Shown here: piece by piece, positions 1 through 58,736 of the stretch | How the letters are laid out: the number at the start of each line of letters is the position of its first letter | Numbering within the stretch: position 1 is the first letter of the stretch | DNA from: Promethearchaeia archaeon | GTDB taxonomy: Archaea; Asgardarchaeota; Lokiarchaeia; Sigyniarchaeales; SOKP01 | NCBI GenBank assembly: GCA_029856125.1 | Contig: JAHQWJ010000120.1 | Location: 256,758 to 320,757 of the forward strand | Direction: 5' to 3' | Length of the DNA stretch: 64,000 nt | Translations under genes and position numbers: made by a program | The notes under the pieces: generated by a model | Seen by the model: the letters and a program-made list of their open reading frames with translations, nothing else | Told to the model about the DNA's origin: nothing | The model's database searches: none

Positions 1-1751
1 TACATGAGAACTTCGTCTTCTAATTGTGGAGACTTTAATGCCATCGCTTTTATCTCCTTTCGAGCGCTCAAGTGCGTATCCTTACTGTGTGTATTCTCAC
101 TTTGTGTACTCTTACTTTTAGTATCCATTTTGAACAAGTCGTCTAGACTTCTCCCGCACGAAGAACAAGTAGAAGGTCGGTCAACGGTCTCTACCTTACA
201 GAAGGGACAGGTGAAAGAGGCGCTCCAGTAAGTAGTTTTCAGCACCTCTAATTCCCTTCTTACTCGGGCGATGGCGTTTGCAGTTCCGACCTCGGGCAAT
301 TCTTTCAGTTCTTTTAGTTCTTTTACTTTTTGCGATATATCAAGCGCAAGGCCGGCGCGCTCCATGTCCAGCAACATCGCGTAAGTGGGAGATTGGTTAG
401 CCCAAGCCATTTCGTTTTCTGGATTTAATTGCACCGCATCTTTGAAGTACTCAATCCCTTTCTTAAAGTTCCACACCTCGCCTTCAATGTATGCTAACCC
501 GAGTAAATTTAGCGCGTCTGAGGTTAAAAATGGATCGTTGCTTAACGATACTACTTTTTTCAAACACCGTCGTTGATGCATGTATTTACCATAATCTTTA
601 TACGCCATCGCAAGCGCAAACCACGATTCGGAGTCGTCGGGCATAAGGAACAACACTTTTTTCAGTAGCGGGATAGCATAGAAGTATTTACCGATTCCAC
701 TACTAAAAAACGCAAAATCTCTCAAGAAAGGCAACTTTAAGTCGTTTTTTTCGTAATAATCAATAATGAGATTATCCCGTTTGACGAATTCTCGAGATAT
801 ATGATACGCTTCTGCTAACCGTAGTTTCGCGATTGGTATTTTAGGATTAATTTCGAGAGCTTTTTCCAAATAAAGTATGGTTTTCTCAATATGATTTTGA
901 TTGAACATCGCTATCCCTAGCCCTACCCAATAAAACGCTTTCTGCGGAACGATTTCCGTCAGAATTTTCATGTATCGGAGTGCTTCTTGAGGTTTCCCCC
1001 GCTCGTTAAGGTCTCGCACACGCGCGATTAACAGTTCTTCGTTGTCAGGGAATTGTTCCATCGCCTTCTGGAAACATTCATCCGATTGTTCGTCGCCTTT
1101 AAAAGCGCGGAGCATTTTCGCTTTGGTTTTCCATTCGTTTACGGTCTTTGCTCTGAAATTCGCAATGTATTGTATAAAAGCTTCAAGTAATTGAGGTTGT
1201 GGGTTTGCCCCCGACGACTTTAGGTCTTGAATGTTAACAGTTTTAAAGCGATCAAAAAACTTTAACGATTCAAATTGCTCAGGAGTAAGGTAGAAAAGAT
1301 ACCCGCCAAGTAATAGACTCATCATTACGGGCAAGTATTCAGAATCGAACCTGCGAGCGATTTCTTCCGAAAAAACATTTTTTGCGAGTGGATCGCCAGC
1401 GTCGCAAAGCTTACGAAGTAACGGAAAGGAGATGTTTGAATGGAGCAAACCGGTGTTGTAATCGTTTTCATACCAGACTTGGAGGTTAGAACAGTGCCCC
1501 CAGAACTCTACTTCCGGAGGAATAAGCGGAACCGTTTCCGGAAGTAACAGCGATTCGTATTCCATCGATTTGTCTAAGTTATCGGATATTTCATCGATCG
1601 AGAGTAGATTTTCTATTCTCGTCATTTTTTCGATTGGAACGTTTAAAAGTAAGTATTTACAGTTTATAAAACGCTCACCGTTTACGTATATCATGGTTTC
1701 GTTTCGTTCCAGCTTAAGGGTTAAGAAATCGTTTACTTTAAAGGTGTGCAC
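1..1751 (-). CDS. TPR-repeat protein with Loki-type N-terminal domain and C-terminal zinc ribbon (3' end at the window edge; absent from the ORF track)
   Basis: Hand translation from GTG at 1751: MHTFKVNDFLTLKLERNETMIYVNGERFINCKYLLLN...EFWGHCSNLQVWYENDYNTGLLHSNISFPLLRKL, an N-terminal domain I recall from Lokiarchaeia LRR/TPR proteins. TPR-like helices follow, then CPFC...CSSCG near the end. The frame reads ...EDEVLM-TA at position 1, so the stop may lie just outside the window. Confidence 0.8.
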   Translation of the reverse strand, partial: MHTFKVNDFLTLKLERNETMIYVNGERFINCKYLLLNVPIEKMTRIENLLSIDEISDNLDKSMEYESLLLPETVPLIPPEVEFWGHCSNLQVWYENDYNTGLLHSNISFPLLRKLCDAGDPLAKNVFSEEIARRFDSEYLPVMMSLLLGGYLFYLTPEQFESLKFFDRFKTVNIQDLKSSGANPQPQLLEAFIQYIANFRAKTVNEWKTKAKMLRAFKGDEQSDECFQKAMEQFPDNEELLIARVRDLNERGKPQEALRYMKILTEIVPQKAFYWVGLGIAMFNQNHIEKTILYLEKALEINPKIPIAKLRLAEAYHISREFVKRDNLIIDYYEKNDLKLPFLRDFAFFSSGIGKYFYAIPLLKKVLFLMPDDSESWFALAMAYKDYGKYMHQRRCLKKVVSLSNDPFLTSDALNLLGLAYIEGEVWNFKKGIEYFKDAVQLNPENEMAWANQSPTYAMLLDMERAGLALDISQKVKELKELKELPEVGTANAIARVRRELEVLKTTYWSASFTCPFCKVETVDRPSTCSSCGRSLDDLFKMDTKSKSTQSENTHSKDTHLSARKEIKAMALKSPQLEDEVLM

Positions 1752-42749: not shown

Positions 42750-43053
42750 TTTTTTATTAAACCTTCAATTCTATATTCTTACAACTTAAAACCTTTTTCT
42801 TTAATACTTGATACGAAAGGTTCAATTAATAGTTTCGAATCGTGAAGTTTACGCATAGTTCGAACTACCGTAGAAAATGATTAGTATCATCATCATCAAA
42901 ATCAATCGGGAATAGTGAAAACTGTTTCAGTTTAAAATTGGGTAATCTACACAAAAGAAATAAGAAACAGAATGAACTAGTATTTCTCATAATGGAGCCA
43001 GAAGATATGAAGATATCCGAGGAATTTATTGAGAATAAAATTTACCTCTATTC

Positions 43054-52592: not shown

Positions 52593-53681
52593 ATGAAAAT
52601 GGAATGGGAGAATAGCGATCGAGAACTTAAACCTCGTAATATCTATCAAAATGTCTTAAATAGAAATATTAACATAAGAGAAGCTTTTAGGTCATTAATC
52701 AATCTTTCACTTTATCATCTTAATCAGGAAATTAAAGCACAAGCTATTAAAATTCGAATTGATTTAGCTAAATCAAATTTAGTCTGGGAATTTGCACGAA
52801 GCAATAATAATATCGAATTATATCTTAATAATGGAGTTTACCCTTCTGATGCTCCAGTTTTAGCCTTATTAGAAATATTAATAGATTGTGAAATCTTAGG
52901 TTACGAAACTAATAATGAAGGCTATATAACTTTTTTGCCTCTTTTTGGTTCAGATAATTCTTGTGTAGGTGTTTTCCCAGAACAAATATGTGATTTAAAA
53001 TTTTTGTATGTACTGTATTTTTCACAACAGAATATTAGATCCATACCAAAGTGCGTTAAGAACTTAACCTATTTGAAAAAGCTTGATTTAAGCTATAATA
53101 ATTTAGAGAAGGTTCCGAACGAGATCCAAGAACTTAAGAATTTGACTTTTTTAGATTTAAGTTTTAATAAAATACAAGAACTCCCTACTTTCGTAAAAGA
53201 ACTTACACATCTTAACCAGCTATATTTAGCCGACGAGGAGTTAAATGTGCCCCACAGAAATGTGTTTGATTGCCTGAATGTCGCTGATCTCGAAGAAAAT
53301 CTTAGCTTAAAAGCATTGTCTGAGTTATTTGCGAAATTAGAAAAAAAGGAGCAAACTGAACGAAAAGAGCTTACTAAGAAATTTAGCGAACAAAAAGAAT
53401 TATCTGCAATTATTTACCCTCCGAGAGAAATCTTAAACACCCTTCTAAATAAACCCCGAAATTTTGAATATGTCATGCTTTGGATGCTGGGTAACAATTT
53501 CGCTTGTGGATGGCGCGATTTCAAGTCGGATCCTGTAAATATAAGTCAAGCAACTTTGTCGAAATATCTCAGCATACTCATCGCAAACAATTATGCGTAC
53601 AGGGTAAGTAAAGGATATTACATAATAACGGAATCAGGAAGAAGAAGATTAAACAAAATAGAAAGTAGTATTAAAAAATAA
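52593..53681 (+). CDS. LRR protein with C-terminal winged-helix DNA-binding domain
   Basis: LRRs (LKKLDLSYNNLEKVP, LTFLDLSFNKIQELP); C-terminal LWML...ISQATLSKYLSIL...YIITESGR MarR-like wHTH. Confidence 0.85.
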   Translation: MKMEWENSDRELKPRNIYQNVLNRNINIREAFRSLINLSLYHLNQEIKAQAIKIRIDLAKSNLVWEFARSNNNIELYLNNGVYPSDAPVLALLEILIDCEILGYETNNEGYITFLPLFGSDNSCVGVFPEQICDLKFLYVLYFSQQNIRSIPKCVKNLTYLKKLDLSYNNLEKVPNEIQELKNLTFLDLSFNKIQELPTFVKELTHLNQLYLADEELNVPHRNVFDCLNVADLEENLSLKALSELFAKLEKKEQTERKELTKKFSEQKELSAIIYPPREILNTLLNKPRNFEYVMLWMLGNNFACGWRDFKSDPVNISQATLSKYLSILIANNYAYRVSKGYYIITESGRRRLNKIESSIKK

Positions 53682-53701: not shown

Positions 53702-53770
53702 TTAAAATCTTAATGTGGCAAAATTATAACCCGTTGGGTTTAATATTGTTTTGCATCCTTTTCTTTTCAT
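53702..53770 (-). CDS. Micro-ORF C, 22 aa: MKRKGCKTILNPTGYNFATLRF
   Basis: CGAGGTAAAAAAAT-ATG; stop TAA followed by a T-tract; leader repeated in the neighbouring units. Confidence 0.7.
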   Translation of the reverse strand: MKRKGCKTILNPTGYNFATLRF

Positions 53771-53868
53771 ATTTTTTTACCTCGTTTTTTAATTTGGTTT
53801 TGTTTTGTGTATTATTTGTTGTTAAATTGCGAATTTTTAATTATTATAAAAAAATGTGGTAATTACAA

Positions 53869-53940
53869 TTACATGTCAAAACGGTAAGGAATATATCCCG
53901 CGTTTTTGATGATTATCGTTCTTTTCTCGTTTTTTTCCAT
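53869..53940 (-). CDS. Micro-ORF B, 23 aa: MEKNEKRTIIIKNAGYIPYRFDM
   Basis: CGAGGTAAAAAAAG-ATG; AAAACAAAACCAAA leader shared with unit C; TAA then T-tract. Confidence 0.7.
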   Translation of the reverse strand: MEKNEKRTIIIKNAGYIPYRFDM

Positions 53941-54015
53941 CTTTTTTTACCTCGCTTTTTTTTGGTTTTGTTTTAGTTTTGATTTTTGGCTTAAAATTAA
54001 TAAAAAAATATATTC

Positions 54016-54096
54016 TTAAAATTTACAGATTAAGTTTGCTTGATTAAAACCTACAACTAATCTAACATCTTCTTCTTGCTTTTCTTTTCTTCTCAT
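54016..54096 (-). CDS. Micro-ORF A, 26 aa: MRRKEKQEEDVRLVVGFNQANLICKF
   Basis: AGAGGT plus A-run before ATG; TAA then T-tract. Confidence 0.7.
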   Translation of the reverse strand: MRRKEKQEEDVRLVVGFNQANLICKF

Positions 54097-54161
54097 TTTT
54101 TTTTTACCTCTTTTCTGTTCTTTTTTTTTCCTGGTTTTTAAAATTTAAAAAAATTAATTGA

Positions 54162-54449
54162 TTAGAAATTTATCGTGGAATTGCGAGCTCCAAGAAGCTT
54201 TGCGTCTACTTGCCCCTTATACTTGTTTATGCCGACTTTCTCTTCCGAAATCCTCGCGTTATATTTAAATTTATTGAACACTCTCAAAAGCTTGTTCGAT
54301 AGTGAACTTGATTCAACCTTCGCTTCTTTGGTGGTATTAACCCGCACCTGAGGCTCTAACACCTCAGGTGCTAGGTTTTGGGCTATGGTTTGGCATTGGC
54401 ATTCCAATTGGTCTTTACAAATGGTTTTTTTTTCTATTGCTTGTGCCAT
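54162..54449 (-). CDS. Small hypothetical protein heading the micro-ORF array
   Basis: 95 aa; A-rich leader; contains VGINK and ends in ...INF; divergent from the wHTH-TPR gene. Confidence 0.7.
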   Translation of the reverse strand: MAQAIEKKTICKDQLECQCQTIAQNLAPEVLEPQVRVNTTKEAKVESSSLSNKLLRVFNKFKYNARISEEKVGINKYKGQVDAKLLGARNSTINF

Positions 54450-54540
54450 TTTTTTTCACTTTTTTTCTTTTTTTTGTTCGAGTTCTTTTTTTTATTGTTA
54501 ATTTTATTAACTTCGGGTTCTTTATTTAGTTCTTGTTTAA

Positions 54541-54565
54541 GAAGTTCGAACGAACTTCGAAGTTC
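54541..54565. promoter_or_regulatory. Overlapping palindromes, candidate operator
   Basis: GAAGTTCG-AA-CGAACTTC (54541-54558) overlaps the perfect palindrome GAACTTCGAAGTTC (54552-54565), inside the 162-bp divergent intergenic region. Confidence 0.6.
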
Positions 54566-54611
54566 AGTGCGAATAACAAACCTTAAATAGCTACGAAACC
54601 GATCTATAACT

Positions 54612-57572
54612 ATGAGTGAGGTAAAATTTCCACCTGAAGGTATAATTACACCTATGAAAATCAACAAAGATTTTGAGCATATTATACTCTGGATGCTCTA
54701 TAATAATGATGTTTGTTTATGGTCTGATTTTAAATCGGATCCTGTAAATATAAGTCAAGCAACTTTGTCGAAATATCTTTCAATCTTGATTAGTAATGGT
54801 TTTATTGAGAAGGAGATGAAGGGTAAGTATAAAATTACTCCTGAAGGTCGAAAACAATATGCCGATCTTCAAGTTAAAAATGCACTTGAAAAAACATTAA
54901 ATTATCCACCTGAAACAATAACAAATAAGAGAAATTACGATGATTGGATTCTATGGATGCTATACAATAACCACCATTGTAAATGGTCAGACTTCCTTGA
55001 GGAGCCGCTTAGAATCAACCAGTCTTCATTGTCGAAGAATTTGAATCTATTACTTGAGAAAGGTTATGTTGAAAAGGATAACCGTGAGTATCAGATTACT
55101 AATTCAGGTGAATTAGAATACTTCAATATGTTAAAGAAATACGATTTGGATCGCCAGTCGATATTAAACGAAGAGACTAAGAGAGTTGAGGTAGTTACAG
55201 ACAAGGTAGCGGAGTTTTTTAACGAATTCGATATCGAAGATAACGGGATAAAATACCGATTTTTGAATATGGTGCTTAGGTTAGATTATACTAAAGTTGA
55301 AAGCACCTTGTCTGACGAGGTAGATTTTGATAAAATTTTGCTTTATCTCGCTATTAATCACCCGGATCAATACCCTAAATACATCACGGCCAAAGATTTT
55401 GCTTTAGAATACGATATAAAGCTAACGACACTGACCTTCTTTATCGAGAAGATCGTTGAAGATAATATCTATCCGATACGCTTCTTTAAATTAAATGTAG
55501 AGGATAAGTACAATTACTACATTCAAGCAGAAGAGCGGTTAGAAAAAATGCTCAATGTAATTATCGAGGATTACATTAGGAAGTTTACATATTTGAGTAA
55601 ATTCCAGAACGCCAGTGGAGTTCAATACCAGATACCCAATATCAACGAGTTACTTGAAGATATAACTAGCGATATGTGTAGTAATTTATTCCACGACGAT
55701 TTGAAACCGGCTCTAAAAAAATTCCTTCCTGAGTATATCGAACATTTGGCATATAAATTTGAGAGCGAGAAAAGTTTGATTAACCACACGGATAAAATAA
55801 AAGGGATCGCCTTTCAAAATGTATTCGAAGTAATTCAGAGTTTTGGAACATCGGAGACGGCGAGTACGGTAAACAAACCTATAGACAACGAATCCTATTA
55901 TTTTTTGCATAATAGGATATTTGATACATTGGACATAATTTATTTCTCGAAAATAGATTTTATTCGCATGGTTGAGTTTAAAAAGGCGTATTTTTCCAAG
56001 AATGCTGAATTTTTAGCAATGATAGAGAAAAAGTTAGCGAAAGGTAACCTATCGAAAGTAAACGATTTGCTTAATGAGAATCTTAAGAATTTAAACGACG
56101 TTGAACTGATGATCCTTAAGGATTTAACTTTAACATATAACGGAGAATTAGAAGAATCGCTCGAATTAACTAAAGAAATCATTGAGAAATATCCTGACGA
56201 ATATGTAGGATATCTTTTTCAATCAGTTACGTATTTCTTGATGGGAAGATTTAAGGATGCGTTGGATGTTATTGATTTAGGATTGAACATGTCATTTAAT
56301 ATCTTGTTAATATCTCAAAAAACGCAAGTTCTCATTAATTACGATCACGATAAAGCCCAAGAACTCATTGATGAGATGATAAAAGAATATCCAGATAATT
56401 TTGCCTTAAATCGCACAAAATTCCTAGTAGGTATGACGGATTGTTGTACAAAAATTTATGACGAACCTTTTGAACTGATAAATTCACTTATAGAATTGAA
56501 TCCTGACGATTCAGACCTCTCAATAATGAAAGCGGTATTATACACGGTAACCCATAAGTATAAGGAAGCAAAAAACTGGATTAAGCAGACTGTTGAATTC
56601 AATTTACTTAAAGGTAATCCACGAGTTGACACTGCTGCGTATTTAATATTGTCATTCTCATATGTAGCTAGAGGTAAATTTGAAAAAGCTTTAGATATTG
56701 TCAGTAAGGTTAAATTCCACTATCCAAACCATCCGCTTTCTCATATTATTACTGGATTAGTTCACGGATTCAATATAGTCTACAATTTTGATGAGGGTAA
56801 AGTAAACAAAGAACTCTTTAAGAAAGAGTTCCAGAAAGCAAAAACAATGGAGCAAAGCAAGAAGAAGTTGTCCAGGTATTATCAACTGGAAAGTTATATA
56901 TTAAATGAAACAGATGGTTTTGACGAAGCAATAAAAGCAATTGATAAAGCAATTGAATTAAGTCCGGAACACTTCGATATCTATAGTACAAAAGCTCACA
57001 TATTCCTAACTTATGACGATAAGCAGAGCGAGATATTAGAGTTCTACGATGAATTATCTGAAAAATTTCCTCAGAATGATAAAGAAATTCGCCAGATGAA
57101 GTCGTTCTCTTATTATGTGTTGGGAAAAATAGAAGAAGGAGTTAAATTTCTTAAAGAAAGTATTAAAATTTACCCCGATGCGGTAGCTATGTTAAACAAC
57201 CTATCTGTATTTCTAGGTAGTTTAGGAAAAATCGATGAAGCTTTGGAGGTAATTGAAAAAACAATTGAAATAGAACCGCGTGACGCGAATTTATTCGATA
57301 CTTACGGTGAAATTCTGATGTTTGCAGAGAAATACGAAGCGGCAATAGAAAAATTTTATCAAGCATTAGAGATGAATCCAACCGGATGGTTTGCATTTCA
57401 TACATTCATAAAACTTTCAAAATGTTATAAAGGTCTAGAAATGCTTGAAGAGGCAGCTACTTGCTACGATAAAGCAAAGATTTTAACAGAAAAAGTTCTA
57501 CCAGGAAAAAGAAAGGTGTATTTAGATCAATTAGACGAGAGTGATGCGTATTTTTCCCGTGTTCCATTATAG
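54612..57572 (+). CDS. Tandem winged-helix + TPR-repeat putative transcription regulator
   Basis: Two N-terminal MarR-like wHTH repeats (ILWMLYNN..C.WSDF...ISQATLSKYL / INQSSLSKNL); C-terminal half made of TPRs (AIKAIDKAIELSP, ALEVIEKTIEIEP, AIEKFYQALEMNP). Confidence 0.9.
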   Translation: MSEVKFPPEGIITPMKINKDFEHIILWMLYNNDVCLWSDFKSDPVNISQATLSKYLSILISNGFIEKEMKGKYKITPEGRKQYADLQVKNALEKTLNYPPETITNKRNYDDWILWMLYNNHHCKWSDFLEEPLRINQSSLSKNLNLLLEKGYVEKDNREYQITNSGELEYFNMLKKYDLDRQSILNEETKRVEVVTDKVAEFFNEFDIEDNGIKYRFLNMVLRLDYTKVESTLSDEVDFDKILLYLAINHPDQYPKYITAKDFALEYDIKLTTLTFFIEKIVEDNIYPIRFFKLNVEDKYNYYIQAEERLEKMLNVIIEDYIRKFTYLSKFQNASGVQYQIPNINELLEDITSDMCSNLFHDDLKPALKKFLPEYIEHLAYKFESEKSLINHTDKIKGIAFQNVFEVIQSFGTSETASTVNKPIDNESYYFLHNRIFDTLDIIYFSKIDFIRMVEFKKAYFSKNAEFLAMIEKKLAKGNLSKVNDLLNENLKNLNDVELMILKDLTLTYNGELEESLELTKEIIEKYPDEYVGYLFQSVTYFLMGRFKDALDVIDLGLNMSFNILLISQKTQVLINYDHDKAQELIDEMIKEYPDNFALNRTKFLVGMTDCCTKIYDEPFELINSLIELNPDDSDLSIMKAVLYTVTHKYKEAKNWIKQTVEFNLLKGNPRVDTAAYLILSFSYVARGKFEKALDIVSKVKFHYPNHPLSHIITGLVHGFNIVYNFDEGKVNKELFKKEFQKAKTMEQSKKKLSRYYQLESYILNETDGFDEAIKAIDKAIELSPEHFDIYSTKAHIFLTYDDKQSEILEFYDELSEKFPQNDKEIRQMKSFSYYVLGKIEEGVKFLKESIKIYPDAVAMLNNLSVFLGSLGKIDEALEVIEKTIEIEPRDANLFDTYGEILMFAEKYEAAIEKFYQALEMNPTGWFAFHTFIKLSKCYKGLEMLEEAATCYDKAKILTEKVLPGKRKVYLDQLDESDAYFSRVPL

Positions 57573-57605: not shown

Positions 57606-58736
57606 TTATTTATTATGTTCTTTAACCAGTTTTACCAATTCTGCTTTCCTATAAGAGGACAACACTTTAATATCGTTATTAATACAGTATTCTTTCAGTT
57701 GTTTTACCGTCCAAGTCTTATAATTTGATTCTGGTTCAATAAATTCTTGGGAGAGCCCTTTTTTAACGAGGCTTATAATTTGTGCTTTTCTATAAGATGC
57801 TGGCACTTTTATATTGTTCTCTTGACAATAAATTTTTAACTGTTTAACAGTCCAGGTATTGTAATCTAGTCCTTTGTCTTTTTCAACCGTCTGTTCTACA
57901 ATTTTGGGTGCTTCGAGTTTTTGGAGAATTTCTATTCCTTCAATAGTTTTAGAGGTATCATCAACATAAATTCTTAAAGTGCGATCAGTTAGTTCAATTA
58001 TTCCCTCTGGCAGCGAGTTCACCGGTCCCCACTCGACTTCTTCTACTTCTTTGCCAAATATTTTAGCTTTTTTTATTGCAGCGCCAAAAATCTGAAAATT
58101 TCCTAAGATTAGGTTTTGTCTTTTTAGATCGGCTGGAATGGTATTATTCACTATTTTATCAATTATTTCCCTTTTGTCAGTTTTGGGTGATTTAATTGCC
58201 TTTTTATGTTCTTCTTTTGTTCTTTTCGTCACAGTTTGAGGAACTGTTTGAGAAGCTTTTTTTTCTTTGAAAGAAGGAGGAGGCCCCTTCCAACTGTGAA
58301 CTCTCTTTCCGTCTAATTCTAGAGTTGTTTTTTCAGGTGTAGAATGAATTTCCTTGAACTCTTGTGAATTTCGATCAAGAAGTTCTGGTAATTCACCTGT
58401 TGTAAAATCGAATGCTCTTAAGAACTCGTTAGGTTCGTCTCCTTGGTCTACTGAGATAATTTTGCATCGATGAAAATGCGCATCCACAATCAGATCGTTT
58501 TGTAATTCAGCAGCAACTCGAGAAGCTATAAATTTTTTCCTGACGTGTGAATTGACACCTTTCCAGATGTAGATTCTCCTTAGGCCCTCCTTGACAATTA
58601 TTAACACTTGGTTAGAATCCAATATATTTTGACCGTTATTCAACCGAAAAGTATCTTCAGAAATATCTAACTTTACTTTTTCTCCTGTACTTTCTAGTCC
58701 GAAGATCATAAAGTTATCATAAATTTCAGACATCAT
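57606..58736 (-). CDS. Gelsolin-domain protein with two C-terminal SAP/HeH/Rho-N-like repeats
   Basis: LDSNQVLII...RIYIWKG..S..KKFIA...VDQGDEPNEFL gelsolin domain; twin repeats Y.TWTVKQLK.YC..N.IKV.(A/S)SYRKA. Confidence 0.85.
   Translation of the reverse strand: MMSEIYDNFMIFGLESTGEKVKLDISEDTFRLNNGQNILDSNQVLIIVKEGLRRIYIWKGVNSHVRKKFIASRVAAELQNDLIVDAHFHRCKIISVDQGDEPNEFLRAFDFTTGELPELLDRNSQEFKEIHSTPEKTTLELDGKRVHSWKGPPPSFKEKKASQTVPQTVTKRTKEEHKKAIKSPKTDKREIIDKIVNNTIPADLKRQNLILGNFQIFGAAIKKAKIFGKEVEEVEWGPVNSLPEGIIELTDRTLRIYVDDTSKTIEGIEILQKLEAPKIVEQTVEKDKGLDYNTWTVKQLKIYCQENNIKVPASYRKAQIISLVKKGLSQEFIEPESNYKTWTVKQLKEYCINNDIKVLSSYRKAELVKLVKEHNK

Follow-up and report, generated by a model that had tools for sequence, protein, structure and literature searches.

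A predicted regulon of conserved micropeptide genes and a winged-helix TPR regulator in one family of Lokiarchaeia

In a 64,000-nucleotide (nt) stretch of DNA from a Promethearchaeia archaeon (assembly GCA_029856125.1, contig JAHQWJ010000120.1, positions 256,758 to 320,757; the window), the gene for a 986-amino-acid (aa) regulator with winged helix-turn-helix (wHTH) domains and tetratricopeptide repeats (TPRs) is transcribed divergently from a 95-aa open reading frame (ORF) and three micro-ORFs, m1, m2 and m3 (Table 1). Judged by sequence comparison with related genomes, this is a real, conserved and previously undescribed regulator-micropeptide regulon, and all four small ORFs are genuine conserved genes. 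The operator and TATA box shared with a major facilitator superfamily (MFS) transporter gene and the stand-alone peptide cassettes described below are new. The first-pass annotation of the window had located the 986-aa ORF, the 95-aa ORF, the three micro-ORFs and the palindromes between them correctly. Its remark that no such system is described in Asgard archaea agrees with our literature searches, which found no paper on this regulator-micropeptide system and no peptide-receptor signalling circuit established in these archaea.

The three micro-ORFs have a common layout, with an A-rich leader, a GAGGT Shine-Dalgarno (SD) site 7-10 nt 5′ of the ATG and a T-tract past the stop. GAGGT complements the 16S tail GATCACCTCCT found in the source genome, where SD sites of this kind precede 391 of 3270 long ORFs (12%). 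With one fixed detector used for both sets, an SD-led ORF of 18-35 aa was found on the divergent strand at 62 of 112 regulator-family loci versus 4 of 1326 other genes of the source genome; the loci are kin, which makes them non-independent. In another set, drawn from the wider family and overlapping the first in part, 18 of 46 loci have a micro-ORF. The first-pass annotation would have been refuted by homologues lacking adjacent micro-ORFs, and this is not what is seen: in orthologs of 61-94% identity the 95-aa ORF is retained together with between one and three micro-ORFs, in an unchanged order and with any one occasionally lost, and most paralog clades have arrays and peptide families of their own. 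In many clades a micro-ORF is the first target gene. Many of the clade-specific peptides share a pattern: they are K/R-rich, contain hydrophobic-N-x-G-[YF]-[NH] and have an aromatic end. The ratio of nonsynonymous to synonymous substitution rates (dN/dS), drawn from intact ORFs (a selection favouring coding signals), is 0.31 for m2, which also has a third-position bias of 38/33/89, and 0.51 for the 95-aa ORF, 0.72 for m1 and 0.71 for m3 (not significant). By these measures the micro-ORFs are protein-coding. One alternative hypothesis is that the units work through their RNA or through being translated, as a leader or attenuator, with the peptide sequence being of little weight. The dN/dS of about 0.7 in m1 and m3 and the repetition of A-rich leader, ORF and T-tract units would fit such a role, which we nevertheless regard as very unlikely given the constraint and third-position bias of m2, the amino-acid motifs common to distant clades, the absence of a constant downstream gene and the lack of an Rfam match. 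Contigs from RNA runs, in which DNA carry-over is possible, include relatives of the regulator and one exact 175-nt contig in the 95-aa ORF (54258-54432); none lies over the micro-ORFs, where A-rich repeat contigs drop out.

The probable regulatory link between the two transcription units is the operator, whose two palindromes fall between two divergent TATA boxes. Palindrome 1 is GAAGTTCG-AA-CGAACTTC (54541-54558), and palindrome 2 (54552-54565) is a perfect 14-mer, GAACTTCGAAGTTC, with a single occurrence in the 3.69-Mb genome. Across clades, the operator consensus ends at a fixed spacing of 9 nt upstream of the target AAACTATATA element. Archaeal activators bind upstream of the TFB-recognition element (BRE) and TATA box (PMC5937170), and the operator is therefore in an activator position. 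Binding of the regulator to this operator, and its control over the MFS gene and the peptide genes, are very probable, and it probably acts as an activator. A position weight matrix (PWM) of the operator, which is unspecific without its TATA part, matches at 95 of 129 divergent promoters, these being partly the training set. When trained on other loci, the matrix finds five operator-TATA sites in the source genome and none in three shuffles: at the regulator/peptide promoter, the MFS gene, a metallo-beta-lactamase (MBL)-fold gene and a gene for a protein of secreted type, the fifth site being weak. Elsewhere, peptide genes that occur singly, genes of the 95-aa family and the gene of a sensor-less HATPase_c protein have the operator in front of them. 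The source-genome sites outside the window include C129:5791(+) (L196:2872-3711), 5′ of the MBL-fold gene, and C82:30862(-) (L197), 5′ of a gene whose product has a hydrophobic segment at the N-terminus. On the regulator side, the TATA-like box sits about 29 nt 5′ of the ATG, and the regulator mRNA is probably leaderless or short-leader.

The MFS gene lies 11 kb from the regulator. Its operator and TATA pass in 13 of 14 orthologs (at least 69% identity) and in 3 of 5 relatives at 50-56%, but in none of 9 paralogs (<48%), and in 836-aa regulator clades the same MFS gene is found directly 3′ of the peptide genes. The shared operator therefore points to a regulon in which the MFS protein is a candidate for export, and SBP_bac_5 importers are present as candidates for peptide re-import. 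Two relatives (G020, G016) have the MFS gene interrupted by stops. By hydropathy, the micro-ORFs have neither a SEC signal peptide nor a hydrophobic propeptide of the SHP type, and m1-m3 lack a hydrophobic core (the best Kyte-Doolittle mean over 8 residues is 0.2-1.35). The first-pass annotation had argued from the missing signal sequence that the peptides may act inside the cell. This argument fails, since the leaderless peptides of the RopB/LCP class are secreted and re-imported (PMC10518010) and the operator is shared by an MFS exporter gene; the missing signal peptide thus leaves the choice between the roles discussed here undecided. A strictly intracellular feedback, the variant put forward in the first-pass annotation, in which the TPRs are titrated by unstable peptides that reflect how much translation or proteolysis the cell can sustain, with no export, is quite unlikely for the same two reasons. 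It could draw on the absent hydrophobic core, on strong SD sites in a genome seldom using SD, and on stand-alone (C12-type) cassettes that in 8 genomes are located 235-390 nt 5′ of an EF-2-like gene, although this last link may be a single inherited insertion.

Table 1. Features of the regulator-micropeptide regulon and its surroundings (window positions, unless residues or other contigs are given)
Feature	Position	Strand	Remarks
986-aa regulator	54612..57572	+	Pfam matches, AF2 model, structural alignment
Regulator wHTH1, wHTH2	residues ~21-90, ~109-175		followed by linker helices
Regulator third wHTH-like unit	residues ~236-305		AF2 model
Regulator helical bundle	residues ~309-410
Regulator TPR solenoid	residues ~430-983		three modules of ~170-190 aa each
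TATA-like box of regulator gene	54581..54590	+	(C/T)TATTTAAG on opposite strand kept in orthologs
Operator	54541..54565	.	two palindromes that overlap; consensus across the family TTCGAACTTC-N3/4-GAAGTT
BRE/TATA of divergent unit	54521..54532	-	family consensus AAACTATATA; 9 nt past operator
95-aa ORF	54162..54449	-	N-terminus variable, C-terminal ~35 aa conserved
m1, 26 aa	54016..54096	-	SD 54106-54110; family motif [GE][FY]NP..L.[RK][FY]
m2, 23 aa	53869..53940	-	SD 53949-53953; family motif III[KR]NAG...R[LF][DE][FM]
m3, 22 aa	53702..53770	-	SD 53779-53783; family motif ILNPTGY....R[FY]
Leucine-rich-repeat (LRR) protein with copy of regulator wHTH1 at its end	52593..53681	+	convergent on array; not a constant part
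MFS transporter, 429 aa	41460..42749	-	MFS_3 / DHA3-like; inferred regulon member
Second operator and TATA	42826..42866	-	0 in 100 shuffles
Stand-alone m1+m2 cassettes, source genome	C12:280-499 (L032), C18:4312-4548 (L031)		own TATA and variant operator

Pfam finds two wHTH matches and TPR matches over cut-off in the regulator, as the first-pass annotation had described, and an AlphaFold2 (AF2) model built on 90 homologues (predicted local distance difference test, pLDDT, 84.7) adds a third winged-helix-like unit and divides the TPRs into three modules. Structural alignment with VIA-align identifies the N-terminus as a tandem wHTH resembling the MarR/PadR/Sso10a type (Z up to 10.4, root-mean-square deviation 1.9, 78 aligned), while NCBIfam gives weak matches to Sso10a, Sta1 and Lrs14, all under cut-off. 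RPC62 homology of this part was considered and dismissed, as the Foldseek match is weak (E about 1e-3, TM 0.13). The best Foldseek matches of the TPR part are the generic superhelices of APC/C, OGT and Tom71, and ESM Atlas returns only generic TPR clusters for the regulator and no usable match for the 95-aa ORF. No RRNPP model is present among the listed Pfam and NCBIfam matches or the best 50 Foldseek rows. Across the regulator family the second recognition helix is nearly invariant, in keeping with an operator consensus common to the clades, and polar residues at groove positions of the last TPR module are kept in all size classes (N862, the invariant D896, and E900).

The regulator belongs to a paralog family found in 100 of 126 genomes of one Lokiarchaeia (Promethearchaeia) family, at 1-10 copies each, and in 1 of 24 searched genomes elsewhere in the class. 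Because it is confined in this way, the system says little about eukaryote origins. Its members span 627-1007 aa in three size classes (~630, ~830 and ~990 aa) separated by whole TPR modules. The 95-aa ORF belongs to a family of 70-98-aa proteins, of which two loci retain the conserved C-terminal end alone, and this family accompanies 49 of 73 regulators with two or three modules (830/990 aa) versus 0 of 35 with one (630 aa). In the short class, a Rab-like GTPase gene is found 3′ of the peptides at 18 of 31 loci (L047, L056, L078, L087 and others), with modules duplicated in tandem. The divergent target of one 824-aa clade is a sensor-less HATPase_c protein of 245-262 aa with an H-box-like motif (L089, L099, L156, L102, L062), whose gene has its own operator elsewhere.

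There are two main explanations for the role of the peptides. The one that we tentatively prefer is a lineage-specific activator whose output peptides feed back through the TPRs, in a loop compatible with export. A regulator dimer bound at the operator would activate the peptide genes, the 95-aa ORF and the MFS gene. The acidic TPR modules would then receive the peptides, which are basic and end in an aromatic residue, together with the C-terminal motif of the 95-aa protein, and this binding would set regulator activity, closing a feedback loop as in Rgg/SHP or RopB/LCP, and the co-regulated MFS protein may export the peptides while ABC peptide importers may return them. That the peptides are signals binding the regulator is plausible. 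We count in favour of such feedback the enrichment of micro-ORFs at regulator loci, the shared peptide pattern, the operator spacing, the TPR groove residues, the opposite charges (net -10 in TPR modules A and C versus +2 to +5 in the peptides), the occurrence of the 95-aa family with longer regulators, the MFS operator and the SBP_bac_5 importers.

Several observations weigh against feedback through the TPRs. Two of the three full regulator copies in the source genome lack an adjoining peptide gene, and at these, as in several clades, a membrane protein, GTPase or HATPase_c protein replaces the peptides. The TPR alleles of orthologs are mosaic relative to the N-terminus (93% N-terminal with 64% TPR identity; 69% with 87%), without matching peptide swaps within the ortholog clade. 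Co-variation of peptides and TPRs, tested with the N-terminus and the downstream gene as controls, is weak: the partial Mantel p of about 0.02 for m1 and for the C-terminus of the 95-aa ORF does not survive 12 tests, and m2 and m3 give no signal. On the tree, module number is not significantly associated with the 95-aa family (4 independent pairs), independent pairs being too few for this comparison and for that with the GTPase. Additionally, among 28 m2-type genes in 42 genomes, 12 adjoin a regulator and 15 stand apart with m1 and their own promoter (one was left out of the placement count). The source genome has two such m1+m2 cassettes and a lone 95-aa-family gene. The cassette promoters fail the operator PWM, yet their GTTC/AGT elements stay in register. 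The lone gene (C105:470-715; L194) encodes an 81-aa protein with neither regulator nor operator nearby. The first-pass proposal is thereby divided: that the regulator controls the peptide genes is well supported, through the conserved operator, whereas the peptides as TPR ligands are made less certain by the many paralogs without an adjoining peptide and the cassettes that often occur alone.

The second explanation, possible though somewhat doubtful, is that the peptides are output only, acting as modulators of intracellular proteins or as exported cationic antagonists. The regulator would be switched at its TPRs by another ligand or partner, for example the small GTPase or sensor-less kinase of sister clades, and the MFS protein would belong to the same stress regulon as a pump for efflux or self-protection. 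Such a role would account for the conservation, in at least 8 genomes, of m1+m2 cassettes that stand alone and have a promoter of their own, for peptide number and order varying between orthologs, for the operator also preceding MFS, MBL-fold, secreted-type and HATPase_c genes, for the weak constraint on m1 and m3, and for peptides that do not strictly track the mosaic TPRs. It leaves unexplained why peptide genes come first behind so many paralogs and why the 95-aa family is confined to regulators with extra TPR modules. A bacteriocin-like version would also have to do without modifying enzymes, leader or cleavage motif, and with little hydrophobicity.

If the preferred feedback loop extends between cells, it could represent archaeal peptide signalling with an origin separate from that of RRNPP, with leaderless 22-30-aa peptides, export by the co-regulated MFS protein, re-import and activators whose TPRs form one to three ligand modules. 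We consider this unlikely; if true, it would give up to ten paralogous channels per genome. Even as effectors, the peptides would make up a regulon whose micro-proteins had gone unannotated, in a lineage that is abundant in sediment. The test reagents are defined and cheap: one regulator, one operator, two target promoters and four peptides.

Some neighbouring genes vary among relatives. The wHTH1 copy in the LRR protein has a 44-nt identity to the regulator gene, and the protein could compete for DNA binding or be what is left of a duplication. We dropped the uniqueness of this identity, as the same 44 nt occur in another genome's regulator. Lone or broken wHTH1-type copies end the array likewise in G004, L131, L143 and L035. 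Small CxxC...CxxC (zinc-ribbon-like) ORFs of 32-69 aa are found within some arrays (L182, L190, L091, L082, L094, L191). A gelsolin-repeat protein with two HeH/SAP-like domains (57606-58736, minus strand) is convergent on the regulator in most orthologs and served as the linkage control.

Among known systems, the archaeal wHTH activators TFB-RF1, Ptr2 and Sta1 (PMC5937170) likewise have a palindromic site just upstream of BRE/TATA, as found here, and a wHTH fold, and TFB-RF1 also activates a putative exporter (PMC5937170); they differ in being small single-domain proteins without TPR modules or peptide targets. The co-regulated MFS protein is similar to DHA3/MFS_3 exporters such as MefA and EntS, with its best NCBIfam matches (2A0121, MefA/B, EntS) all under the specific cut-offs. 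A RiPP (a peptide made on the ribosome and modified after translation) or bacteriocin precursor array was rejected, as neighbours within 1-4 kb of the peptide genes vary and include no modifying enzyme, leader-core structure or dedicated peptidase. The closest likeness is to RRNPPA systems (Rgg/SHP, ComR/ComS, RopB/LCP; PMC10075063, PMC9765709, PMC10518010), which share an N-terminal DNA-binding part followed by TPRs, a small SD-led ORF that is adjacent and divergent, more than one paralogous pair in a genome and a peptide gene under probable positive control. The small genes here (22, 23, 26 and 95 aa, conserved and coding) are within the 10-100 aa of RRNPP(A) systems, and the TPRs are over the Pfam cut-off and present in the model. 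The 95-aa ORF adjoins the regulator here and a micro-ORF comes first in other orthologs and clades, if not at all paralogs. The 22-26-aa Asgard peptides have a basic N-terminus as in SHP and no SEC tag as in LCP, and on the Asgard side peptide binding and secretion are putative. Of the five RRNPP criteria set out in PMC10075063, two fail, namely the secretion tag, to which the LCP class is itself an exception, and the receptor size, which is 250-500 aa (PMC10075063) as against 627-1007 aa. The Asgard regulator has three MarR/PadR/Sso10a-type winged helices, whereas RRNPPA receptors have a single HTH or 3HB and a core of 5-9 TPRs. Its TPRs are canonical, its targets are arrays of 1-3 non-hydrophobic peptides with a 70-98-aa protein, and its promoter is of the archaeal TATA/BRE type. 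We therefore do not class the system as RRNPP, on account of receptor size, secretion tag and the different DNA-binding module, and it appears to be convergent with RRNPP systems and not descended from them.

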